Of a stretch of DNA of 64,000 nucleotides, positions 1 through 33,164 are shown piece after piece (the stretch's first letter is position 1; every line of letters starts with the position of its first letter). This DNA comes from Paenibacillaceae bacterium. GTDB lineage: Bacteria; Bacillota; Bacilli; Paenibacillales; NBRC-103111. Location of the stretch: positions 202,409 to 266,408 of the forward strand of contig JAQSYI010000003.1 in NCBI GenBank assembly GCA_029256185.1. Reading direction: 5' to 3'. The position numbers and the translations under genes are program-made. Below the pieces are notes generated by a model. It searched no databases, was not told the DNA's origin, and worked only from the letters and a program-made list of their open reading frames with translations.

Positions 1-317
1 TGACGCGTCAACTTTAATTAACGTCCGGAAAGAATACCATCCAACGGCAGAATGGCCGCCTGTTTCCATGTGGCATTCATAATTGAAAGAACCTTTTGAC
101 CCTCAATTGATTGCTCATGACCGGGCTCTAAACTTCAACGCCCCTCCGTTCCAGGCAGGCTCGGATAACCCCCTCGGCCGCCATTCTGGCCATCCGGTAA
201 CCCAGCCTCAACCTCTTATCCCAAGCCTAATTCCACCAGAAGCCGCTTATTCCCTGCCTGCCCCGGAAAACAAATATAGTATGCGCAGGAACGGTCCGGC
301 TTCTTCCTCCATTACAT

Positions 318-361
318 GAGGAACAGCCCGCGCCAATGAAAAATGGCGTGGGCTGTTCCTC
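318..361. terminator. GC-rich 18-bp hairpin downstream of the kinase gene (terminator or REP-like)
   Basis: GAGGAACAGCCCGCGCCA (318-335) pairs with TGGCGTGGGCTGTTCCTC (344-361). There is no clear poly-U tail, so terminator function is uncertain. Confidence 0.45.
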
Positions 362-406
362 CGCTTATCCGCCGCGGATTCAGCGATCTGTATTTTTAGC
401 GCAATA

Positions 407-1480
407 TCATTGCGGCTCCACTTTTAACCTGACGGTGAAGGTGGACCCCTTGCCCGGTTCGCTCTTGACCGATATGGAGCCTCCTGCCAATTCAATGACG
501 CGCAGCGTAAGCGCCAGGCCAAGCCCGTTGCCCTCGCCGGAATGGGAGGTATCTCCCTGGTAGAATTTATCGAAGATATGCTTCATGGTTTCCTTGTCCA
601 TGCCGCAGCCCGTGTCGGATACGGAAACCGTCACCGAATCCTCGTCCGAGGCTTGCGTCAAGGTGATTGTTCCCCCGGGCTCCGTGAATTTCAGAGCATT
701 GGAAAGCAGGTTATGCCATACGATCTCCAGCATGCTTGCATCGGCCCGGACCATGGCGCGGTCATCCAGATCCGCCACAAACTCAATACCCTTCTGCTCC
801 CATGCATTCTCAAAAGTAAGCGCGCAGTCGCAGAGCTGGCGGCACAGATCGAAGGGCTCTGCTGCGGGACTGATCTCCTGATTGCCCAGCTTATTGAGCT
901 TTAGGATATTCGTCACCAGCGATGTGAGATTTTTGGAGGCGGTGATGATCGTATCGGCATATTCCTTGCGCTTCTCCCGGGGCAAATCCTCTTTTTGCAG
1001 CGCCGTGGCATAGCTTTGGATCACCGAAAGAGGCGTCTTGATTTCATGGGAGACATTGGCGATAAAGTCGTTTTTTAACGTTTCGATGCTGCCCAGTTCC
1101 TCTACCATCTTATTGAAGTCCTCAAACATCACATCCACATAATCCAGCTTGTCTGCGGTATGTGTTGGCTCCAGATAAACCGAGAAATCCCCCTCGGCAA
1201 CTTGCTTGGCAGCTTCGCTGAGCTTTCTCATGGGTTTGTCGAAGGCGAGGAACTTCTGGCGAGCCGTAACCATGCAGAATACGGCGGTAACAATCGCCCA
1301 ATACCCCAGCATCCCCCAGATATATTCCGGAGGCATCTGGTCAAAATCCATATATTCCGCATAAATCATACCTTGTCCGGCAGACAGCGTCAGCAGCACA
1401 AAATAAGTCAGCGCATATTCCCGCCACCGGAAATGCCTGGATTTCACCCGGAGATCCTGTTCGACCGGCTTCTTTTTCAT
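407..1480 (-). CDS. Sensor histidine kinase (2 TM + HAMP + HisKA + HATPase), intramembrane-sensing type
   Basis: H-box FIANVSHEIKTPL, N-box WHNLLSNALKFT, G1 DTGCGM, F-box IFDKFYQGD and G2 GNGLGLAL. Two N-terminal hydrophobic segments are separated by only ~12 residues. Overlaps the regulator stop by 4 nt. Confidence 0.95.
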   Translation of the reverse strand: MKKKPVEQDLRVKSRHFRWREYALTYFVLLTLSAGQGMIYAEYMDFDQMPPEYIWGMLGYWAIVTAVFCMVTARQKFLAFDKPMRKLSEAAKQVAEGDFSVYLEPTHTADKLDYVDVMFEDFNKMVEELGSIETLKNDFIANVSHEIKTPLSVIQSYATALQKEDLPREKRKEYADTIITASKNLTSLVTNILKLNKLGNQEISPAAEPFDLCRQLCDCALTFENAWEQKGIEFVADLDDRAMVRADASMLEIVWHNLLSNALKFTEPGGTITLTQASDEDSVTVSVSDTGCGMDKETMKHIFDKFYQGDTSHSGEGNGLGLALTLRVIELAGGSISVKSEPGKGSTFTVRLKVEPQ

Positions 1481-2166
1481 TCCAATACCGCCTTGTAGCC
1501 CAGGCCGTGCACGGTGACGATCTTGAAATCCTGGCAGCCGGAGAACTTATCCCGGAGCTTCGTGATATACACATCCACCGCGCGCAGGCTGGTTTCACTG
1601 CCGATGCCCCAGAACTCGTCCATGAGCTGTGCGCGGGAATGGGTGCGCTTGGGATAGGACAGCAGCTTGTAGAGGATATTGAATTCCCGTACGGTTATAG
1701 GGATTTCTTCACCGTTTACCGAAGCAGTCATGGCATCCGCGTCCATCACAAGACTTCCTACAGCCAACCGCTTTTCATTGGTGATATTCCCCCGGCGGAG
1801 CAGCGCGCCCACACGGAGCACCAATTCTTCGATATCGATGGGCTTGACCATATAATCGTCGATGCCGGCGCGGAACCCCTTCTGCTTGGACGAAATATCG
1901 TCGCGGGCGGTCATGAACAGAATAGGGATGGTCTTATTGATATCCCGCACGGTTTCGGCAAATTCAAAACCGTCAATCCCCGGCATCATAATGTCCGAAA
2001 TGATCAGATCGTACAAATGGTTATACATCAAGCTATACGCTTCCTGCGGATTCAAACAGCCCTTCGCGGCATATCCGTTATCATTCAGATACGTGCAGAC
2101 GATTTGGTTAAGCTTCACATCATCTTCCACAACAAGTATGTTGATCATGGCAAAACCCCTGCGCAT
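1477..2166 (-). CDS. OmpR/PhoB-family response regulator
   Basis: REC domain (ILVVEDD, IISDIMMPGIDG, GIDDYMVKP) and winged-helix C-terminus (RAVDVYITKLRDK, TVHGLGYK). Confidence 0.96.
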   Translation of the reverse strand: MRRGFAMINILVVEDDVKLNQIVCTYLNDNGYAAKGCLNPQEAYSLMYNHLYDLIISDIMMPGIDGFEFAETVRDINKTIPILFMTARDDISSKQKGFRAGIDDYMVKPIDIEELVLRVGALLRRGNITNEKRLAVGSLVMDADAMTASVNGEEIPITVREFNILYKLLSYPKRTHSRAQLMDEFWGIGSETSLRAVDVYITKLRDKFSGCQDFKIVTVHGLGYKAVLE

Positions 2167-2181
2167 ATTTTATAGTTGCTA

Positions 2182-2222
2182 CGATTATAACAACCAAATA
2201 TTTGAGAAATGTTAAAGAAAAG
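2182..2222 (-). promoter_or_regulatory. Promoter of the RR-HK operon: extended -10 (TGnTATAAT) plus an 11-bp-period direct-repeat box
   Basis: Minus strand reads CTTTTCTTTAA-CATTTCTCAAA-tatttggtTGtTATAAT. The box recurs at 7064-7085. Confidence 0.6.
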
Positions 2223-2363
2223 CCGCAGGCGCAAAAAATAAGTCGGCGTTCAGGCTAAAGCTTGCGCAGTATCCATTATATGGTAAACTAATTGCAAATG
2301 TCCCAATAGCTGACTGGCCCATGTGCCTAAAGGGAGAATAAATGGCCCGGGTGTGAGCAGCCG

Positions 2364-2768
2364 CCCCCGCTCCCGGGGCAACAGCTTGCACTTTGCCAGC
2401 TGTTGCGGACTTTTCCTCCCGCCCCCGATGCAACAGCTTGCATTTTGATTGCTGTTGCAGAGCTTTGCTCCATCTCCCGGGGCGACGGCTTGCATTTTGA
2501 CAGCTGTTGCAGAGCTTTGCTCCCGCTCCCGATGCAACAGCTTGCATTTTGACAGCTGTTGCGGAGCTTTGCTCCCGCCCCCGGTGCAACAGCTTGCATT
2601 TTGACAGCTGTTGCGGAGCTTTGCTCCCGCTACCGGTGCAACAGCTTGCATTTTGACAGCTGTTGTGGACTTTTGCTCCCGCTCTCGATGCAACAGCTTG
2701 CATTCTGCTAGCTGTTGTGGAATTTAGCTCCCGCTCCCGAGACAACAGCTTGCATTCTGCTAGCTGTG
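2364..2768. repeat. Tandem array of eight 52-bp units, each with a GCAACAGC-N13-GCTGTTGC palindrome
   Basis: Unit starts at 2378, 2430, 2482, 2534, 2586, 2638, 2690 and 2742 (exact 52-bp period). The linkers are mutually similar (ggagctttgctcccgcycccgrt). Confidence 0.95.
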
Positions 2769-2957
2769 ACGTGCGGCTGATCATCGGAATTGCGTTGCAA
2801 CGATCCATCACCCTCGGCCAGTAGCTTTTCGGACCATGTTTGATTTTTGCCGCTTAGGATTGTAATTTTTCAGCATTGTGATGCAGCTTAGATCGTTCAG
2901 GAATTTAAGACAAACGACTGTCGGTGTATTTTGGCGAAGCAGCGCAATCCCCTTAGC

Positions 2958-3141
2958 TTACGGACATCAGCGCTCTTATTTGGCCAAAATCCGAGGGTTA
3001 GGAATTCTAACGGACTCAGTTGCTCTTATGTGACTCCCTTGCCCCCCATCTAGGGGGAATTCGGCATAATAAGGTTTTTCCAGTCCGTTAAACTGCACTA
3101 ACCCCTGCTTTTTCCGCAAATAACGTCCTTCAGGTCCGTCA
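2958..3141. repeat. ~185-bp composite palindromic intergenic element (2 forward + 2 inverted TAACGGAC...TATT units around a central hairpin)
   Basis: Units at 2958, 3008, 3068 and 3119, with central CCCCCATCTAGGGGG. A homologous copy lies in the opposite orientation at 24611-24791. Confidence 0.8.
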
Positions 3142-3227
3142 GCCGAGCTGGGTTGGAGTTCAAAAACCGGGAGCGATGCGAGTATCGCGATAATAGAAGC
3201 ATCCAAAACATAAGCTTGCCCTTTCAG

Positions 3228-3400
3228 CCAGGTAGGCACCTTCTCATGTATGCGCTAAGCGGTTTCCGCCGGGTAGCTCCCTCCCTTGCATGCGCTAAGC
3301 CCTTTCCGCCAGGTAGCCACCTTCTCATGTATGCGCTAAGCGCGTTTCCGCCGGGTAGCCCGCTTCTCTTGCGCTAAGCCTTTTCCGCAAAGTAACCCGC
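3228..3400. repeat. ~40-bp degenerate tandem repeat (GCGCTAAGC...TTTCCGCCrGGTAGC) with 81-bp higher-order duplication
   Basis: The GCGCTAAGC core occurs at 3252, 3292, 3333 and 3371. The segments starting at 3228 and 3309 are nearly identical. Confidence 0.85.
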
Positions 3401-3468
3401 TTCGCAAGCACAAGCTTATTATGCCCTCCAAGAGTTTTGCTTTCGGGTGCCCCGAAACTTATAAATTC

Positions 3469-4851
3469 TTACGTGCAAACAGGACTTTCCGCCTCGGCCC
3501 CACAGCCGGAACAGCGGCCTGAGCAAGCATGCAGCCTGTCTGCCACAGGGGCCCACTTCCCGGCGGTATCCCTGCATTTTGCCGCAAGGTCACGGACGTC
3601 CTCCGGGTTCTGCAGGTCGGTGGAATGGGCCCCGGAGAGCTCCACCATCCGGACAAGAGCATCGGGATTATCCAGCAGCGGACAAGGCCGCAGGTGATTG
3701 CCGTTAAACGGCTGGCCGTTCTTATAGGCCATAAACAGCGGGGACTGCAAGGCTTCCAGCAGCGTCTTGTCACGGATGTTGGAATCGGAATAATGGATGA
3801 AGGCGCATGGCTCCATATCCCCGTTGGCATTGATATGCAGATACCGTCTTCCGCCCGCAATACATCCGCCGGCATATTCCCCGTCATTCCAGAAATCCAT
3901 CGTAAACAGGGGCTTCGTCTCCCGGAAGCGGCGAATCTGGGAGTACATGAAGGCACGCTGTTCGGCAGTCGCCATCAGCTCGGGCACCGCCTCCTTGCCC
4001 ACGGGCATATAAGTAAAGAACCAGCAGAACTTGGCTCCCCATTGGATCATCTGGTCGAAATACTCCTCGGAGCCGATCATCTCCACATTCTTGCTTGTAT
4101 AGCAGCACGAGGTGCCAAAGGGCAGGCGCTTGGCTTTAAGGATCGCCATGGCCTTCTCCACCTTGTTGAAGGTGCCCCCGCCCCGGCGGAAATCCGTGTC
4201 TTCTTCCATTCCTTCCACACTGATTGCGGGAATAAAGTTCTTCACCCGCAGCATCTCATCGGCAAAGGCCTCATCAATGAGGGTGCCGTTGGTAAAGGCG
4301 GCAAACTGGCAATCGGGATGCGCCTCACAAAGGCGGATGATGTCCGCCTTGCGCACCATAGGCTCTCCGCCCGAGTACAGATAGAAATATATGCCCAGTT
4401 CTTTGCCTTGGGAAATAATCGTGTCCAGCGTCTCATAAGACATATTCAGCTTATTGCCGTATTCCGCCGCCCAACAGCCCGTGCAGTGCAGATTGCAGGC
4501 GGAGGTGGGGTCCATCAGGATGGCCCAGGGGATATTGCTGCCGTATTTCTCCCGATTGATCTCCCGTTTCGGATTTCCGATAATACTGGCATTCAGCACG
4601 AAATTGCGGAACAGGGTTTTCAGGATGTCATTGTCAATGTCCTCCCAGAGTCCCATGATATATTGATGCCAATTATTTTCCGGTTTATCCAGGATTTCAT
4701 GAAATACTTCCTTGTGAGCGGCAAAATCCTCCCCCCAGCCCATATAGTCTATCCACGCAAGGAGCTTGGGCAAATTTTTATGCGGATTGCCGGATATATA
4801 GTTCATGGCCTGCTTCAGGGCAAACGCCTGCATTTTATGCTTCGTCTTCAT
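3469..4851 (-). CDS. Radical SAM enzyme with C-terminal SPASM/twitch-like cysteine cluster, function unknown
   Basis: CxxxCxxC motif (TSACNLHCTGCW), SGGEP and TNGT motifs, C-terminal GCIAGG...EPCAF...RPCPLLD and a CSGRCSGC tail. RBS GGAGAGG lies upstream. Confidence 0.92.
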   Translation of the reverse strand: MKTKHKMQAFALKQAMNYISGNPHKNLPKLLAWIDYMGWGEDFAAHKEVFHEILDKPENNWHQYIMGLWEDIDNDILKTLFRNFVLNASIIGNPKREINREKYGSNIPWAILMDPTSACNLHCTGCWAAEYGNKLNMSYETLDTIISQGKELGIYFYLYSGGEPMVRKADIIRLCEAHPDCQFAAFTNGTLIDEAFADEMLRVKNFIPAISVEGMEEDTDFRRGGGTFNKVEKAMAILKAKRLPFGTSCCYTSKNVEMIGSEEYFDQMIQWGAKFCWFFTYMPVGKEAVPELMATAEQRAFMYSQIRRFRETKPLFTMDFWNDGEYAGGCIAGGRRYLHINANGDMEPCAFIHYSDSNIRDKTLLEALQSPLFMAYKNGQPFNGNHLRPCPLLDNPDALVRMVELSGAHSTDLQNPEDVRDLAAKCRDTAGKWAPVADRLHACSGRCSGCGAEAESPVCT

Positions 4852-4889
4852 ATTTTCCCTCTCCTTTTCCTGTTGCCTGATCCGTCCTT

Positions 4890-6392
4890 TTATTTGGTTT
4901 GCCCCGGCACTGCCAAGGGTTTGACCGGTTCATTGGCTTTGTTGCCGGGTTGCGCAATGCCCCCCTGGTTCGTCTTCTTAATGAAAAAGGACAGCGCCAG
5001 TCCGATTAATCCAAAGATGATCACGGCCAAATAAGCGTCGTTCATGCCTTCAATCGAAGCCTTCTGCAGCAGCAGCGCCTGATCGGGAATGGTTCCCGCC
5101 GCTCCCAGCTTCATGGCGTGGCTCTCTGTCCGGTTGCTCAGAATAGTCACCAGCAGCGCTGTTCCGATCGCGCCCGCCACTTGCTTGACCGTATTGGAGA
5201 TCGCGGTTCCGTGGGCATGCAGCGCCGGGGGCAGCTGGTTAAGCCCGGCCGTTGTAATGGGCATCAGGAACAGCGCCATGCCGATCCGTCTTCCGGCCGA
5301 CATGAGCATGAGGTACAGATAGCCGGTGGAGTCTGTTAAGGACATAAATCCGGCTGTCGTCACAATCGTAATGGCAATCCCGCTAATGGACAGCCATTTG
5401 GCCCCGAACCGGTCAAACAGTTTGCCGGACAGCGGCATCAGCAGGCCCATCAGCAATGCTCCGGGCAACATGAGAATTCCCGTATCAAATGCGGAATACT
5501 GTCTCATATTCTGCAGATAGATGGGCAGCAGGATCATATCCGAATACATCACTATGGTCGCCACAATATTAATGATGGTTGTCAGGCTGAACATGTTGTA
5601 CCGAAAGGACCTTAAATCCAGCAATGGATTATCGCTTCTCAGTTGGCTGACAGAGAACAGAACCAGTGCGCACACCCCCACAGCCAGGGCGACGATCACT
5701 TCTGGGCTGGACCAGCCTGCGGCCCCCGCTCTGCTGAACCCGTAGAGCAATGTGCCGAATCCAAGAGTGGATACGGCCATTCCCATGCCATCCAGCTTGG
5801 GATAAAGGCGCTTCGTCACATTTTTCAGGTAGAAGATTGAGAGAAGAGCAACCATCACGGACAAGGGAACCATCACGTAAAACAACGAGCGCCAGCTAAA
5901 ATGGTCCAGCATAAACCCGGCATAAACCGGGCCCACGGCCGGTGCCAGGACGGTGGATAACCCGATCAAGCCCATTACACCTCCCCGCTTCTGCTCGGGA
6001 ATGATCACAAGCACCACGTTCATCAGCAAGGGCATAATAATCCCAGCGCCGGCAGCCTGAATGAGCCGCCCGACCAACAGAACTTCAAACCCGGGAGCCG
6101 CGCCCGCTATCACGGATCCGGCCAGAAACGAGAGCATGGACGCGAGAAATAGCTCGCGGGTTGTAAAGCGCTGCATCAGATAGGCGGTTATGGGAATCAA
6201 TACCCCGTTCACCAGCATATATCCGGTTGTCAGCCACTGGGCCGTTGACGCTGCGATATGGAAATCCGTAATCAGCTCGGGAAGCGCCACGGTCATAATG
6301 GTTTGGTTCAGAATGGCTATGAAGGCGCCCAGGATCATAATAAAGAGAATCGGGCCTTTTTTGACAGCATGGGTTTCCAATTGTTCGTTCAT
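4890..6392 (-). CDS. DHA2 (EmrB/QacA/LmrB-like) 14-TM MFS efflux transporter
   Basis: LNQTIMTVALP, QWLTTGYML, LLVGRLIQAAGAG (motif C region), many hydrophobic helices. Confidence 0.93.
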   Translation of the reverse strand: MNEQLETHAVKKGPILFIMILGAFIAILNQTIMTVALPELITDFHIAASTAQWLTTGYMLVNGVLIPITAYLMQRFTTRELFLASMLSFLAGSVIAGAAPGFEVLLVGRLIQAAGAGIIMPLLMNVVLVIIPEQKRGGVMGLIGLSTVLAPAVGPVYAGFMLDHFSWRSLFYVMVPLSVMVALLSIFYLKNVTKRLYPKLDGMGMAVSTLGFGTLLYGFSRAGAAGWSSPEVIVALAVGVCALVLFSVSQLRSDNPLLDLRSFRYNMFSLTTIINIVATIVMYSDMILLPIYLQNMRQYSAFDTGILMLPGALLMGLLMPLSGKLFDRFGAKWLSISGIAITIVTTAGFMSLTDSTGYLYLMLMSAGRRIGMALFLMPITTAGLNQLPPALHAHGTAISNTVKQVAGAIGTALLVTILSNRTESHAMKLGAAGTIPDQALLLQKASIEGMNDAYLAVIIFGLIGLALSFFIKKTNQGGIAQPGNKANEPVKPLAVPGQTK

Positions 6393-6445
6393 GGTTTATT
6401 TATCCTTTCTGCGTCTGCGGCGCAGCAAATTGCCTTGCCAATGGC

Positions 6446-6979
6446 TTACTGGCCCAGCAGAGTGTTGGCCTTTTCGCATACCTCGTAGATTTCGTCGTGC
6501 TTTTGATCGATCAGGGGCGCAACCTTGGTTGCTCTTTTCTTATGAATCGCGTTGTAGCAGAAGTACGGAACAATCCATCCGATGAAAGCGGGGACCGCCA
6601 GAAGAATGGAAAGAGGCAGCATGTCAGCCAAATAGGCGAACACAGATCCGGCCATAAACGCCGTTCCCACAATGCCGGTGGAAAAAGCGGCAATGGCAGC
6701 CCCGCTGATTTTGGATTTCTCCAGCATTTCCATGTCGCGGATGCAAGAATCGGCCTGGCGCTGGAGTCTGGTCAGCTCAGCCTTATTGCGGATTTTGCGG
6801 TCGCGCTTGAATTTCAGCGTAACGGACGAAAAGCCCTGCAGAGGCTGGGAGGCTCCTTCCAGTGTCCAGCCGAAATTGGTATAGCAATCGGCATATAGCG
6901 ATTCCATATTGCGGCTGACGGTAATGTCCTTGTACTCATACCCCACAAAGTTGTGAGCGTTCTTCGTCATTTCGTTCAT
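6446..6979 (-). CDS. Hypothetical protein with two C-terminal TM helices
   Basis: Good RBS (AAGGAGAG) and first gene of the operon. A soluble/coiled N-terminal part is followed by hydrophobic AAIAAFSTGIVGTAFMAGSVFAYL and LSILLAVPAFIGWIVPYFCY. Confidence 0.8.
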   Translation of the reverse strand: MNEMTKNAHNFVGYEYKDITVSRNMESLYADCYTNFGWTLEGASQPLQGFSSVTLKFKRDRKIRNKAELTRLQRQADSCIRDMEMLEKSKISGAAIAAFSTGIVGTAFMAGSVFAYLADMLPLSILLAVPAFIGWIVPYFCYNAIHKKRATKVAPLIDQKHDEIYEVCEKANTLLGQ

Positions 6980-7063
6980 CGTAATCTCTCCTTGTTAATT
7001 CATATTTTCAATAGGCTGTATGATTTGATGAACTTAGCTTACCGCGGGGTTATTTACAACTTG

Positions 7064-7085
7064 CTTGCGAAATGTTTAAGAAATA
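7064..7085 (-). promoter_or_regulatory. Candidate response-regulator box upstream of the hypothetical-MFS-rSAM operon
   Basis: 7065-7083 TTGCGAAATGTTTAAGAAA vs 2202-2220 TTGAGAAATGTTAAAGAAA (17/19 identical). Confidence 0.6.
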
Positions 7086-7100
7086 TTAAATGCTCCGTGA

Positions 7101-7141
7101 GGAAAACCTGGCGGAAGAACACCGCCAGGTGCTTTTTTTAT
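7101..7141. terminator. Intrinsic terminator-like hairpin
   Basis: AAAACCTGGCGG-aagaaca-CCGCCAGGTGC followed by a T7 run on the plus strand. The minus strand also gives a short T-run. Confidence 0.6.
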
Positions 7142-7186
7142 TGCCAAGGGAGTAACGACTTACTGCAGTCCCGCCCCGCCTACTCC

Positions 7187-7380
7187 TAACGGAAATTTTT
7201 TCCGCTATTCCTGCAAATTCTTCATTTCTCTCTGATTTAGCGGAAATTTTTTCCGCTATTTCCTCCTGGACTCCCCAAAACAGGCATTTTGATCTGGTTT
7301 TGAGGAGTTAACGGAAATTTTTTCCGCTAAATCTCGGTAAATACCGAAAACTGTCCCGATAACGGAAAAAATTTCCGTTA
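7187..7380. repeat. Four copies of a 21-bp palindrome TARCGGAAA-N3-TTTCCGYTA spaced 51/71/51 bp
   Basis: Copies at 7187, 7238, 7309 and 7360 (last one inverted), with a central hairpin at ~7270-7308. Confidence 0.9.
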
Positions 7381-7460
7381 ACCTCGTCCCAAGTGCCCCT
7401 TATTTACCTTACGCCCTTTCGCGCTGTAAGGCACTTAAGCATTCTGATGTGGTAGCAAAG

Positions 7461-7490
7461 ACAAAAACCCTTCCGAAGAAGGGTTTTTGT
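7461..7490. terminator. Bidirectional rho-independent terminator
   Basis: ACAAAAACCCTTC-CGAA-GAAGGGTTTTTGT, a perfect 13-bp stem downstream of the COG0523 gene. Confidence 0.85.
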
Positions 7491-7559
7491 CCAAGCGGCA
7501 ATGATTAATGGTTTTTACCGGATTTCCCGGTGCAGCGCTGAGCATCCTGTTCAGCAGCA

Positions 7560-8786
7560 TTAGTCGCTCTGGCGGACGAGTTCAGCCGGAACAGCTTGCT
7601 CCTCCACCCATGAAGGGAAACCGTCCCTAAATTTGCTCCAGTCCGCCGTCATCTCCTTCTCGGTCAACAGGCAGGCGTCCAGTTTTCGGATAATCTCCGC
7701 TTGATCCAGCCCGATCCCGATCAAAACCAGCTCCGTCTCCCGGTCTCCCCACTCAGGGTCCCAAGCAGCCGCCAACTCCGGCTCCTCCTTCAGAATGAGA
7801 CGCTGCTCCTCCCGGGGCATGGATGCTACCCAGTATCCTGCAGGCCCGAATTGAATGGATGGCCCCGCCTGTCCAAGGGATACGGCAATGGCGTTTCTGC
7901 TGGCCAGCCACAGGATGCCCTTGGACCGGACGATTTCCTCCGGCCACGCCTCCATGAATGCGTACAAGCGCTCCGGCTGGAACGGCTTGCGGCGGCGGTA
8001 AACAAAGGAGCTGATCCCGTATTCCTCCGTTTCGGGAGTATGCTCCTCCTTGGCAAGCTCTCTCATCCATCCTGCCGATTGGCTGGCCTCATCAAAGTTG
8101 AACAAGCCGGTGTTGAGAATTTCCTCCGGATTCACCTGCCCCCGTACAGAGCGAATAAGACGGGCACGGGGCTGAAGCTTACGGAGCATGGCCTCCAGCT
8201 CCAGCAAACTCTTCTCCTCCACCATATCGCATTTGTTCAGCACCAGCACATCACAGAACTCAATCTGATCGATCAGCAGATCCACCACATCCCGTACATC
8301 CTCCGCGCCGGCGGCCTGGGAGCGTTCCAGTAGACTGTCGCCGGATGAGAAATCATGCCAGAAGCGGTAGGCGTCCACCACCGTCACCATACAATCCAGT
8401 CTGCAAACCTCAGACAGGGAGATGGAGGTGTCTTCGTCCTCATACGAGAAGGTCTGGGCGATAGGCAGGGGCTCTCCAACGCCAGTGGACTCAATCAGAA
8501 TATAATCGAAGGTTCCTGCCGAAGCCAGCTTCTGAACTTCCTTCAGCAAATCATCACGCAGGGTGCAGCAGATACAGCCGTTGGAGAGCTGAACCAGTTT
8601 CTCCTCTGTGCGGGAGAGAGTAGAACCGGACTGAATCAGAGCAGCGTCAATATTGACCTCGCTCATATCATTGACAATAACCGCCACCCGCAAGCCCTGC
8701 CGGTTATTCAACACATGGTTCAGCAGGGTCGTCTTGCCTGACCCCAGATAACCGCATAGCACCGTGACGGGAATTTTAGTCTTCAA
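7560..8786 (-). CDS. COG0523 / CobW-YciC family G3E GTPase (zinc metallochaperone)
   Basis: Walker A GYLGSGKTT, NDMSEVNIDA, metal-binding GCICCTLR, ESTG, NKCD and C-terminal CobW_C. TTG start with RBS AAGGAGG. Confidence 0.95.
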   Translation of the reverse strand: MKTKIPVTVLCGYLGSGKTTLLNHVLNNRQGLRVAVIVNDMSEVNIDAALIQSGSTLSRTEEKLVQLSNGCICCTLRDDLLKEVQKLASAGTFDYILIESTGVGEPLPIAQTFSYEDEDTSISLSEVCRLDCMVTVVDAYRFWHDFSSGDSLLERSQAAGAEDVRDVVDLLIDQIEFCDVLVLNKCDMVEEKSLLELEAMLRKLQPRARLIRSVRGQVNPEEILNTGLFNFDEASQSAGWMRELAKEEHTPETEEYGISSFVYRRRKPFQPERLYAFMEAWPEEIVRSKGILWLASRNAIAVSLGQAGPSIQFGPAGYWVASMPREEQRLILKEEPELAAAWDPEWGDRETELVLIGIGLDQAEIIRKLDACLLTEKEMTADWSKFRDGFPSWVEEQAVPAELVRQSD

Positions 8787-8804
8787 AGCAAACGCCTCCT
8801 TGTT

Positions 8805-8825
8805 TAATAGTAATTATTACTATTA
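8805..8825. promoter_or_regulatory. Zur box
   Basis: Perfect 10-1-10 palindrome TAATAGTAAT-T-ATTACTATTA. It resembles the Bacillus Zur consensus (AAATCGTAATnATTACGATTT), overlaps a minus-strand TATAAT and sits directly upstream of the COG0523 gene. Confidence 0.85.
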
Positions 8826-8963
8826 TAAAGCATATTACACATATGCTATGATCTTGTCAATGCCATCCTTATCTGTCTGTTGTTGCACTGCCCTGTTGCA
8901 CTGTCCGGTTGCGATGTCTGTTATTGCACTATCCTATCGTGCTGTCCCGATCAATAGGGAAGC

Positions 8964-9002
8964 AGCAAAAAGAGCCTATTGGCGTCTACGCCGACAGGCC
9001 CT
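8964..9002 (-). terminator. Rho-independent terminator of the GH94/sugar-acid operon
   Basis: Minus strand GGGCCTGTCGGCG-TAGA-CGCCAATAGGCTC-TTTTT. Confidence 0.75.
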
Positions 9003-9037: not shown

Positions 9038-10033
9038 CTACATCGCCAATATTTGCCGCCAAATATCTTCATTGACAGGAATTCCGTTCGCCATATTATC
9101 CAGCCGGGTTTGATATTCCCGCTCATTGGGATAGAGAATTTCCTTCTCATCGTCCACCCGCACGGACTCCTTCACATTCTGGATTACCTCGTCCACCAGC
9201 CGTCCATTCTCCGGAGTAATTCTCTTCACATCCAGGGCAATAAATACCTGGGATACGGCGTATTCATCCTCTCCCAATTGGCCGACGCGATAGGTGCTGT
9301 TGCCATCGGACAGACAGGCAGCAATCAGATCCAGCAGAATGGAGAAGCCGGAGCCCTTCCAATACCCGATAGGCAGCACACGCCAGGACTTCTCAATTTC
9401 CGCCGGGTCCGTGCTCAAGTTTCCATTGGAGTCAAATCCCCCGGGAACAGGAAGCTGTCTGCCTGCAAGCTTGGCGGCTTCGATAGCTCCGTAAGAGAAT
9501 TGCGCCATGGCGCCATCCACCATCAGGTGTCCATTTTCCTTGGGCACACACATAATCAGAGGGTTATTGCCGATACGGCGGTCCGTAGCCCCCCAAGCCG
9601 GCATGTTGGGCTGGGTATTGGTCCAGCAGATGCCGATGCAGCCCGCATTGGCAGCCTGAAGGCCGTAAGCGCCGCCCCGCATCCAGTGGTTGGTGTTCCG
9701 CAGCGCTACACAGCCGATTCCGAATTGGTGCGCCAGTTCAATCGCCCGGTCCATACAGATTTTGGCGTTGGTATTGCCCATGCCCAGATTGCCGTCCCAT
9801 TTCTCCAATGCACCGAAGGACTGAATGCATTCCGGGTCATTCTCCGGCTTGATATAGGCCTTTTGCAGGTAAGAAATCACCCGGGGAAAACGGTTCACAC
9901 CGTGAGAATATATGCCATCCAGACTATTTTGAGCAAAAATTTCCGCATTTATGCGGGCTTTCTTTTCTTCAAAGCCATACTTGACCAAAACCCGGGTAAA
10001 TTCCTCAATCATTTGCGGGTAGGGGATTCTCAT
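9038..10033 (-). CDS. yiaK: 3-dehydro-L-gulonate 2-dehydrogenase / 2,3-diketo-L-gulonate reductase (Ldh_2 family)
   Basis: YiaK-typical motifs DGIYSHGVNRFPR, ALRNTNHWMRGGAYG, ICWTNT, RRIGNNPL, MAQFSYG and LPIGYWKGSG; 331 aa. Confidence 0.88.
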   Translation of the reverse strand: MRIPYPQMIEEFTRVLVKYGFEEKKARINAEIFAQNSLDGIYSHGVNRFPRVISYLQKAYIKPENDPECIQSFGALEKWDGNLGMGNTNAKICMDRAIELAHQFGIGCVALRNTNHWMRGGAYGLQAANAGCIGICWTNTQPNMPAWGATDRRIGNNPLIMCVPKENGHLMVDGAMAQFSYGAIEAAKLAGRQLPVPGGFDSNGNLSTDPAEIEKSWRVLPIGYWKGSGFSILLDLIAACLSDGNSTYRVGQLGEDEYAVSQVFIALDVKRITPENGRLVDEVIQNVKESVRVDDEKEILYPNEREYQTRLDNMANGIPVNEDIWRQILAM

Positions 10034-33107: not shown

Positions 33108-33164
33108 CTTATATCAGGCCGCAAAGCGGAGGCCTCTAAAATATTTGGGGATTGCTTTAATATT
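33108..33164 (-). promoter_or_regulatory. Promoter of the GH106-GH110 operon with the shared 21-bp-spaced direct repeat
   Basis: CTCTAAAAT-atttggggattg-CTTTAATAT at 33134-33163; TG-a-TATAAG -10 on the minus strand at 33108-33113. Confidence 0.6.

Follow-up and report, generated by a model that had tools for sequence, protein, structure and literature searches.

A candidate two-promoter regulon for membrane-lipid remodeling, with a radical SAM enzyme as its probable effector, in a Paenibacillaceae bacterium

What does a two-component system control when the genes encoding it and a neighboring operon for a radical S-adenosylmethionine (SAM) enzyme carry almost the same upstream sequence? The question is raised by positions 407 to 7130 of a 64,000-nucleotide stretch of contig JAQSYI010000003.1 from a Paenibacillaceae bacterium (the whole stretch is called the window below), where gene calls and domain scans place five minus-strand genes. 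A sequence-only reading of the window had proposed that the five form an inducible module that senses a membrane-active compound and responds with export plus radical chemistry, serving either detoxification or lipid/envelope remodeling. We give a probability of about 0.55 to a different answer, namely, that the two promoters constitute a regulon for inducible membrane-lipid remodeling in which the radical SAM enzyme is the effector and most probably a homolog of Mss, the bacterial membrane-spanning lipid synthase. The features of the locus are as follows.

407 to 1480, minus strand: HK, sensor histidine kinase, 357 amino acids (aa), with HisKA and HATPase_c domains (Pfam and NCBIfam)
1477 to 2148, minus strand: RR, OmpR/PhoB-family response regulator, 223 aa, with Response_reg and Trans_reg_C domains
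2185 to 2214, minus strand: predicted autoregulatory promoter of RR-HK, with two operator units and the -10 box TATAAT
3440 to 3456, minus strand: stem-loop TTTCGGG-GCA-CCCGAAA, read from the sequence, 13 nt past the stop codon of rSAM
3469 to 4851, minus strand: rSAM, radical SAM enzyme, 460 aa, with matches to PF04055 (59 bits) and SPASM (23.7 bits)
4890 to 6392, minus strand: MFS, DHA2-type major facilitator superfamily efflux permease, LmrB/EmrB-like, 500 aa (TIGR00711)
6446 to 6979, minus strand: HYP, uncharacterized membrane protein, 177 aa, with no family match
7036 to 7088, minus strand: predicted promoter of HYP-MFS-rSAM, with four operator units and the -10 box TAAGCT
7106 to 7130, no strand assigned: stem-loop flanked on either side by runs of A and T, terminator-like in both directions (terminator scan and sequence)

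The shared operator and the conserved core

The two upstream regions contain the 19-mers TTTCTTTAACATTTCTCAA (2202 to 2220) and TTTCTTAAACATTTCGCAA (7065 to 7083), both on the minus strand and identical at 17 of 19 positions, as the sequence-only reading had noticed. This 19-mer had exactly these two matches in the 64 kb even when 3 mismatches were allowed (0.05 expected), and two matches were obtained in 0 of 100 shuffles. The repeat had been described as two copies of YATTTCKYAAR; its 11-bp period held, while its register proved to be shifted in frame, and the operator is better written as (T/A)AACATTTC units that repeat every 11 bp, with the half-site AAACATTTC. Two units, TAACATTTC (2206 to 2214) and AAATATTTG (2195 to 2203), lie upstream of RR-HK at 2195 to 2214, and four units, TAATATTTC (7080 to 7088), AAACATTTC (7069 to 7077), AAGCAAGTT (7058 to 7066), and AAATAACCC (7047 to 7055), lie upstream of HYP; the two-unit consensus at 11-bp spacing occurred at these two places only in the window (0.01 expected). 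At both promoters, the last unit is separated by a 7-nt spacer from the -10 hexamer (TATAAT at 2185 to 2190 and TAAGCT at 7036 to 7041), and a -35 consensus is absent. Repeats that replace the -35 box upstream of a -10 box are the layout of PhoB/OmpR-type activators, and a consensus promoter scan detected neither promoter, presumably because both depend on an activator and lack a -35 box. A further, weak operator-like pair, AAGCAATCCCCAAATATTTT (33138 to 33157, minus strand), precedes a minus-strand gene and scored 19 bits. It was set aside as probably due to chance, because no -10 box stands at the spacing seen in the real sites.

The operator was followed through a synteny sample of 80 loci (one genome per species) in which the rSAM ortholog is 63 to 81% identical to the window protein. 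In the loci of the closest orthologs (L001, L003 to L008, L021, L030, and L061), RR (78 to 87% identity) and HK (52 to 82%) are encoded beside rSAM (beside rSAM orthologs of 67 to 81% identity, the values are 80 to 87% for RR and 68 to 82% for HK), and the position, orientation, and spacing of the operator are kept upstream of both RR-HK and HYP-rSAM. Orthologous upstream regions have four units before HYP and two before RR, the two-unit layout being found upstream of the RR orthologs of L001, L003, L004, L006, L008, L061, and L020. When unit pairs 11 bp apart were scored with a position matrix built from orthologous sites, arrays of at least 24 bits occurred only in loci that also carry the two-component system, HYP, or a close rSAM ortholog; the operator was also found in loci outside the matrix training (L009, L010, L012, L013, L015, L020, and L082, the last from Paenibacillus donghaensis). 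An alignment of 15 promoters from 10 genomes gave TTAATATTTCnnAAACATTTCnnAAGCAATTCnTAAACAAT-N7-TAAGAT-N6-CATCAAATGGAT, and these predicted sites keep the 11-bp period, the number of units (two or four), and the constant 7-nt spacing to the -10 box. The motif is thus present in the orthologous upstream regions, and coregulation by an OmpR-type RR, which the sequence-only reading had proposed, is strongly supported by its conservation before the RR-HK and HYP-rSAM orthologs.

The segment CATCAAAT directly 3′ of the -10 box of the HYP promoter is likewise conserved. As a separate observation, the leaders that follow the -10 box (7015 to 7035 in the window, and those of orthologs) have CATCAAAT(G)GAT in common, and many orthologous leaders then fold a short hairpin (GGATGAnAATCATCC and GGATCAnAAAAGATCC); the window keeps CATCAAAT but not the hairpin. 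This element may be a 5′ stabilizer or a second control site.

Homologs of HYP were found within 8 kb of rSAM in 12 of the 80 loci (39 to 67% identity; 53 to 69% for the orthologs beside the closest rSAM orthologs), and all 12 are of the type with the operator and the two-component system. HYP usually lies 15 to 60 nt upstream of rSAM and otherwise just 3′ of the kinase gene; in L030, L061, and L008, a HYP paralog immediately follows the kinase gene. No MFS homolog was found within 8 kb of rSAM in any of the 80 loci, where the slot between HYP and rSAM is either empty or occupied by other genes. The pump is therefore peculiar to the window, a lineage-specific insertion into its operon, which makes export a local addition and not the core response that had been assumed for a five-gene module. 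The association of rSAM with HYP, RR, and HK did prove to be conserved beside the closest orthologs, and the core is RR-HK plus HYP plus rSAM, also in the cultured species Paenibacillus donghaensis and Ruminiclostridium cellobioparum, within a regulon that is larger in relatives than in the window.

For R. cellobioparum (L061), assembled RNA sequencing contigs cover HYP and rSAM with a single 1956-nt piece, and other pieces start at 9409, about 10 nt downstream of the start site predicted from the -10 box. Since the contigs are assembled, this is modest evidence for expression and cotranscription of HYP and rSAM in one relative. In the window, the gaps between HYP and MFS (53 nt) and between MFS and rSAM (38 nt) are short, and the terminator scan predicted no minus-strand terminator in either, so that a three-gene HYP-MFS-rSAM operon is plausible. 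The RR stop and HK start codons overlap by 4 nt. The RR gene most likely starts at the ATG at 2148 (MINILVV, with the ribosome-binding site AGGGG) and not at 2166, because every ortholog begins with M-(I/V)-N-I. Between the rSAM stop codon and the RR promoter lie 1.3 kb of noncoding DNA rich in tandem repeats, so that the two sets of genes are separate transcription units. The stem-loop at 3440 to 3456, which has no clear T tract and was not called by the terminator scan, is a weak candidate for the end of the operon transcript, and that at 7106 to 7130 would insulate the operon promoter from the region upstream.

The radical SAM enzyme and its lipid gene neighborhood

Both domain scores of rSAM exceed their cutoffs. 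The cysteines of the core CX3CX2C motif (C119, C123, and C126) are invariant in 40 homologs, as are C330, C349, and C390 of a partial SPASM/Twitch region and C175, C181, and C250; residues 1 to 103 form an all-helical domain of five helices without a strand (AlphaFold model; predicted local distance difference test [pLDDT] score of 85), and no membrane helix was predicted. The homolog search returned at least 8000 sequences at an E value of ≤0.001. The 40-homolog sample, drawn from several phyla, is 61 to 81% identical to the window rSAM, and a further 828 cluster representatives were found at ≤1e-30, many of them full length and 35 to 55% identical. None of the curated NCBIfam models came near its cutoff; the best, NirJ2, scored 70 bits against a cutoff of 500, and AhbD scored 61 bits. 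A role in heme or heme d1 synthesis (AhbD or NirJ) is unlikely because these scores are very low and heme genes are absent nearby. Among solved structures, the closest in sequence is that of the anaerobic sulfatase maturase (anSME; E = 5.5e-9).

The neighborhoods of rSAM point to lipids. When the operator was not considered and open reading frames (ORFs) were clustered across the 80 loci, the recurrent neighbors of rSAM were a TetR_C_8 regulator (25 loci), fatty-acid-binding proteins of the DegV type (9), SAM synthetase (MetK; 7), cardiolipin synthase (6), VTT/DedA (5), and PlsY (4). The operator itself precedes a cardiolipin synthase-rSAM-DegV arrangement in L020 and, in L013, a series running from rSAM through PlsY, an AI-2E transporter, a NAD reductase, and a second PlsY to a more distant cardiolipin synthase and HYP. 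It also precedes short-chain dehydrogenase/reductase genes and NAD-dependent epimerase/“male sterility”-type reductase genes (L004, L021, and L061), a stretch leading to reductase-DegV (L006), a family of multipass membrane proteins (L082), and a helix-turn-helix regulator with a toastrack (DUF4097) protein (L005). Of the two options that the sequence-only reading had offered, these neighborhoods and operator targets favor lipid/envelope remodeling over detoxification, and rSAM is the probable effector of the regulon. The operator was additionally seen before genes for methyl-accepting chemotaxis proteins (L009:1123, L013:1136, and L082:11513, the last in P. donghaensis), and these chemoreceptors seem to belong to the regulon.

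The 25 loci in which rSAM is linked to TetR_C_8, a regulator that is encoded divergently there, show zero overlap with the 12 loci linked to the two-component system, which suggests that one conserved effector has come under two alternative control systems by a swap of regulators. None of the 25 TetR-linked loci has a HYP homolog within 8 kb, and HYP therefore goes along with the two-component system, not with the enzyme itself. We also observed, beside rSAM in Fusibacter and other Clostridia (L050:8547-9620, minus strand; L019, L033, L037 to L040, L051, and L063), a divergently encoded paralog of about 357 aa with 20 to 25% identity. In the L050 copy, the only one read, CX3CX2C is lost and replaced by NIPWSITFSLTDTHRISQ, and there is no Pfam match; the paralog may be an inactive partner subunit.

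Mss produces diabolic or iso-diabolic acids by linking the tails of two fatty acyl chains (Sahonero-Canavesi et al. 2022, PMC13159169), and a review of lipid-modifying radical SAM enzymes presents it as the sole bacterial one that acts on ordinary phospholipid acyl chains (PMC13459092). The Mss authors counted as homologs proteins with an E value of ≤1e-50 and at least 30% identity to WP_129545148.1 (Thermoanaerobacter ethanolicus) or Tmari_0825 (Thermotoga maritima). Three indirect lines lead us to place rSAM in the published family. A 2026 survey of Bacillota species with Mss (and Ger) homologs lists P. donghaensis, Fusibacter ferrireducens, F. paucivorans, Caproiciproducens faecalis, C. galactitolivorans, and Proteiniborus (PMC13274423), and all of these hold a member of the rSAM family with 65 to 79% identity (79% in P. 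donghaensis). The phyla with Mss homologs include Spirochaetes, Synergistetes, Caldiserica, and DPANN archaea (PMC13159169, PMC11868695); named distant full-length relatives of rSAM (35 to 48% identity) come from Spirochaetia, Synergistales, Caldisericia, and Nanoarchaeota, and close relatives include Coriobacteriia, Anaerolineae, and Synergistes, so that the spread shared with Mss comprises Bacillota, Coriobacteriia, Chloroflexota, Synergistota, Spirochaetota, Caldisericota, and DPANN archaea. Finally, Mss is described by its authors as only remotely like Tes, the archaeal tetraether synthase (Tes/GDGT-MAS) (PMC13159169), and a preprint found a Tes-like protein of T. ethanolicus to be inactive; the rSAM family profile matched Tes (7tol) with E = 0.24 over the core only, and Tes lay outside the top 50 fold matches. 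Both are radical SAM proteins with CX3CX2C that are not Tes homologs and occur mostly in anaerobes, and condition-dependent synthesis has been reported for Mss where rSAM would be under inducible control. Here, rSAM is under a two-component system and paired with HYP; the searched literature describes neither for Mss. Judged by this match of species and phylum distribution, and not by alignment with a validated Mss, membership of rSAM in the Mss homolog family is likely, so that the enzyme, first thought unassignable, probably can be assigned. That it performs tail-coupling chemistry in this organism is a less secure step, at slightly under even odds.

Sensor, partner protein, and known systems

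Two helices near the N terminus of HK (TM1 at about residues 22 to 41, the weaker of the two and read by eye; TM2 at residues 53 to 72, from hydropathy) are joined by a loop of some 11 to 14 residues, EYMDFDQMPPEYIW, with the motif MPPE(Y/F)IW (MPPEYIW in the window), which is conserved in orthologs; helices and loop are kept in orthologs that are 75 to 82% identical. They are followed by a HAMP-like linker, a HisKA domain with the phospho-acceptor His145, and HATPase_c. With a loop under 25 residues, HK has no extracellular domain, and a kinase with two helices and so short a loop must sense within or at the membrane, so the earlier assignment of HK to the intramembrane-sensing type is supported. 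The receiver domain of RR has its phospho-acceptor at Asp52, and neither RR nor HK attained the cutoff of any NCBIfam equivalog.

HYP has no relative in Pfam, NCBIfam, or the PDB. It combines an N-terminal β-α-β-β domain with GYEYK and FGW motifs, a long basic helix, KFKRDRKIRNKAEL, and two hydrophobic helices in its C-terminal half (from hydropathy); a single-sequence model was poor (pLDDT of 55), too poor for a fold search. Intramembrane-sensing kinases commonly depend on a co-encoded membrane partner, a role for which HYP is the obvious candidate; alternatively, HYP may assist the enzyme at the membrane.

A functional parallel is DesK-DesR-Des of Bacillus subtilis, in which a membrane-sensing kinase induces an acyl-chain desaturase that corrects membrane properties. 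Here too, an intramembrane kinase would lead to an acyl-chain enzyme, and feedback of the enzyme's product on the sensor is to be expected. However, DesK is a HisKA_3 kinase with 4 to 5 helices and a NarL-type partner, whereas HK is of the HisKA type, with two helices and an OmpR-type RR; in addition, the enzyme is an oxygen-independent radical SAM protein instead of an O2-dependent desaturase, and the operator is a direct repeat of 2 to 4 units. SaeRS of Staphylococcus aureus resembles the window system in its two-helix kinase with a very short loop and similar size, its OmpR-type regulator, its TTAA(C)-containing direct repeat spaced at 11 bp (the SaeR site is GTTAAN6GTTAA), and the accessory membrane proteins encoded at the locus (SaeP and SaeQ there, HYP here). 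SaeRS activity is affected by free fatty acids and by the DegV-family FakB proteins (FakA/FakB), and in relatives of the window DegV genes are part of the regulon. Sae, in contrast, targets virulence factors and not lipid enzymes, and no sequence-level orthology emerged, all NCBIfam equivalogs having scored under their cutoffs.

LiaFSR/VraTSR and BceRS-AB likewise pair an intramembrane kinase with a co-encoded membrane partner, positive autoregulation, and membrane protection, and LiaFSR has been linked to cardiolipin changes. The LiaFSR/VraTSR regulators are of NarL type, whereas RR is of OmpR type, and Bce kinases are linker-less and always beside an ABC transporter, of which there is none in positions 1 to 9000 of the window or beside the orthologous systems. 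HYP is unrelated to LiaF and BceB in Pfam and NCBIfam scans. Since an ABC partner is missing, the Lia/Vra regulators are of NarL type, and DesKR combines HisKA_3 with a NarL-type regulator, the window system belongs to none of the Bce, Lia/Vra, and DesKR types, although it probably works like them.

The remaining features of the region concern the pump, spurious ORFs, and repeats. MFS scored 397 bits with TIGR00711 (cutoff, 230), which identifies a DHA2-type permease, and 388 bits with the Lmr(B) model of NCBIfam, under its cutoff of 800. A plus-strand ORF of 501 aa antisense to rSAM (3529 to 5034), which recurs opposite rSAM in 11 related loci, was rejected as an artifact of codon usage, and the repetitive ORFs (e.g., 2212 to 2811) that the repeats of a 52-bp array create were rejected as spurious; a second 177-aa ORF just beyond the window has no relation to HYP. 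The 52-bp array itself (2366 to 2767) lies between the rSAM stop codon and the RR promoter, comprises 7.7 copies with 87% matches, holds the palindrome GCAACAGCT-N11-AGCTGTTGC in every unit, and was found nowhere else in the window. A second tandem array (3218 to 3403), just 3′ of the rSAM operon, has about 4.7 copies of a 40-bp unit (73 to 77% matches). At 7187 to 7380, between the upstream stem-loop and a CobW-family GTPase gene (7560 to 8786), four copies of the 20-bp palindrome AACGGAAATTTTTTCCG(C/T)TA, unique in the 64 kb, start at spacings of 51, 71, and 51 bp; they may form an operator array or else represent a small repeat element. An Rfam scan of the window found no riboswitch or other known RNA.

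Proposed mechanism, alternatives, and implications

What was observed (the genes present, a conserved operator, the synteny, the lipid gene neighborhoods, and, in one relative, the cotranscription of HYP with rSAM) can be joined in a mechanism. Its inferred elements are the binding of RR to DNA, the signal, what HYP does, and the chemistry of the enzyme. HK, possibly aided by HYP, would detect a change of the membrane, be it in its physical state, in free fatty acids, or through an envelope-active compound; the link to DegV and the precedent of SaeS suggest free fatty acids. HK would then phosphorylate RR at Asp52, and RR would bind the 11-bp direct repeats head to tail (half-site AAACATTTC) and recruit RNA polymerase without a -35 box. 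From the two-unit site, RR would boost its own operon in a positive feedback, and from the four-unit site, it would turn on HYP-MFS-rSAM. The enzyme, a soluble or peripheral protein of the SPASM/Twitch type, would alter acyl chains. If it is an Mss, it would abstract hydrogen from acyl-chain ends and couple two chains into bolaform lipids of the diabolic acid type, which would lower fluidity and permeability, tighten the membrane, and feed back on the sensor.

Several points weigh against lipid remodeling by an Mss homolog. Membership in the family was judged by distribution, and no named Thermotoga or Thermoanaerobacter protein was among the listed matches of three homolog searches (with the window rSAM, a protein from a Thermoanaerobacterales metagenome-assembled genome [MAG], and one from a “Fervidobacterium” MAG as queries) or in the clusters of 20 distant representatives. 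A link to Thermotogota through P0205, the “Fervidobacterium sp.” MAG protein (67% identical to the window rSAM), was dropped: its relatives (78 to 100%) sit on contigs of other metagenome assemblies (L083 to L085), beside TetR, MarR, and MATE genes, and therefore its taxonomic label may be a binning error. The published lists of Mss homologs use loose cutoffs, and the Mss authors note that homologs do not always coincide with membrane-spanning lipids. The fold search with rSAM returned generic SPASM/Twitch proteins only (SkfB, SuiB, anSME, and viperin), and the window has no lipid gene besides the putative rSAM. Its organism, known from a soil metagenome, is possibly a facultative aerobe, and Mss activity has been seen anaerobically only. 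We found no paper that links Paenibacillus to diabolic acids.

The last point bears on the alternative that regulon and lipid target are as proposed and the chemistry is another, for instance, a methylation-independent cross-link within one lipid, a cyclization, or a reaction on a fatty acid held by DegV/FakB. The lipid neighborhood favors a lipid substrate and names no reaction, the adjacency of rSAM and DegV in 9 loci would suit a free fatty acid, and the family, to which Mss membership is tied only indirectly, is unusually conserved across phyla; cultured holders such as Paenibacillus are, moreover, not known for diabolic acids. The overlap with the species and phylum lists of Mss would, however, be hard to explain for an unrelated family, and the review of lipid-modifying enzymes (PMC13459092) names no other bacterial enzyme for ordinary phospholipid acyl chains. 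We regard this alternative as unlikely.

A module against antimicrobial or xenobiotic stress, in which HK senses a membrane-active drug, MFS exports it, and rSAM acts in the detoxification of a small molecule or in peptide maturation, would account for the LmrB-like DHA2 pump in the window operon. It would also agree with the intramembrane kinases of Bce, Gra, and Lia type that answer antimicrobial peptides, with MarR-MATE genes that follow rSAM in one relative, and with the toastrack protein of L005, a domain known from the envelope stress protein LiaG. Yet the pump is missing from all related loci. Maturation of a ribosomally synthesized and posttranslationally modified peptide (RiPP) is unlikely, because no RiPP recognition element (RRE) or PqqD-like domain is present (the N-terminal domain of rSAM is all helical and not a winged-helix RRE) and neither a precursor ORF, nor a protease, nor an exporter, including ABC exporters, is conserved nearby; the RiPP, heme, and sulfatase maturase models all scored ≤70 bits against cutoffs of 225 to 650. 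The stress module is therefore improbable in our estimate. Still less probable is a modification of a protein, HYP or another membrane protein, of the kind that anSME-type enzymes carry out. The sequence relation to anSME and the position of HYP, just upstream of rSAM and cotranscribed with it, speak for it, but, among the 80 loci, HYP homologs within 8 kb of the enzyme are confined to those with the operator and the two-component system, and HYP can follow the kinase gene instead of the enzyme gene, and sulfatases are absent nearby.

Lipid remodeling by an Mss homolog thus remains our preferred answer. Taken singly, its parts are of known kinds: the two-component system is OmpR-type and has an intramembrane kinase, the pump is of the DHA2 family, and the radical SAM enzyme is Mss-like. 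In the searched literature, we found no description of the link between them, the operator, the HYP family, the lipid regulon, or the alternative between TetR and two-component control, and none of a regulator, operator, or partner protein for Mss. More tentatively, and with rather less than even likelihood, some Bacillota, including culturable Paenibacillus and Ruminiclostridium, may make bolaform lipids on demand: a DesK-like intramembrane kinase, with HYP as its partner, would gauge the bilayer's condition and, by way of the four-repeat operator, turn on rSAM as a tail-coupling enzyme together with cardiolipin, PlsY, and DegV functions. If true, the response would be a homeoviscous one that needs no oxygen, and its regulator would be the first known for monolayer-lipid synthesis in bacteria.

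Membrane-spanning lipids of bacteria and ether derivatives of these (brGDGTs, or branched glycerol dialkyl glycerol tetraethers) serve widely as proxies of past climate, and papers on these lipids report that their synthesis depends on growth conditions. If rSAM is an Mss, the locus would provide a sensor, a regulator, a precise operator, and a list of coregulated lipid genes, as well as the culturable hosts P. donghaensis and R. cellobioparum for induction tests. Even if it is not, the rSAM family is, among radical SAM families that occur in gut and soil anaerobes and are uncharacterized, one of the most conserved, and its function is made approachable by a clear link to lipid genes and by the two control systems, TetR or two-component, under which it is found.

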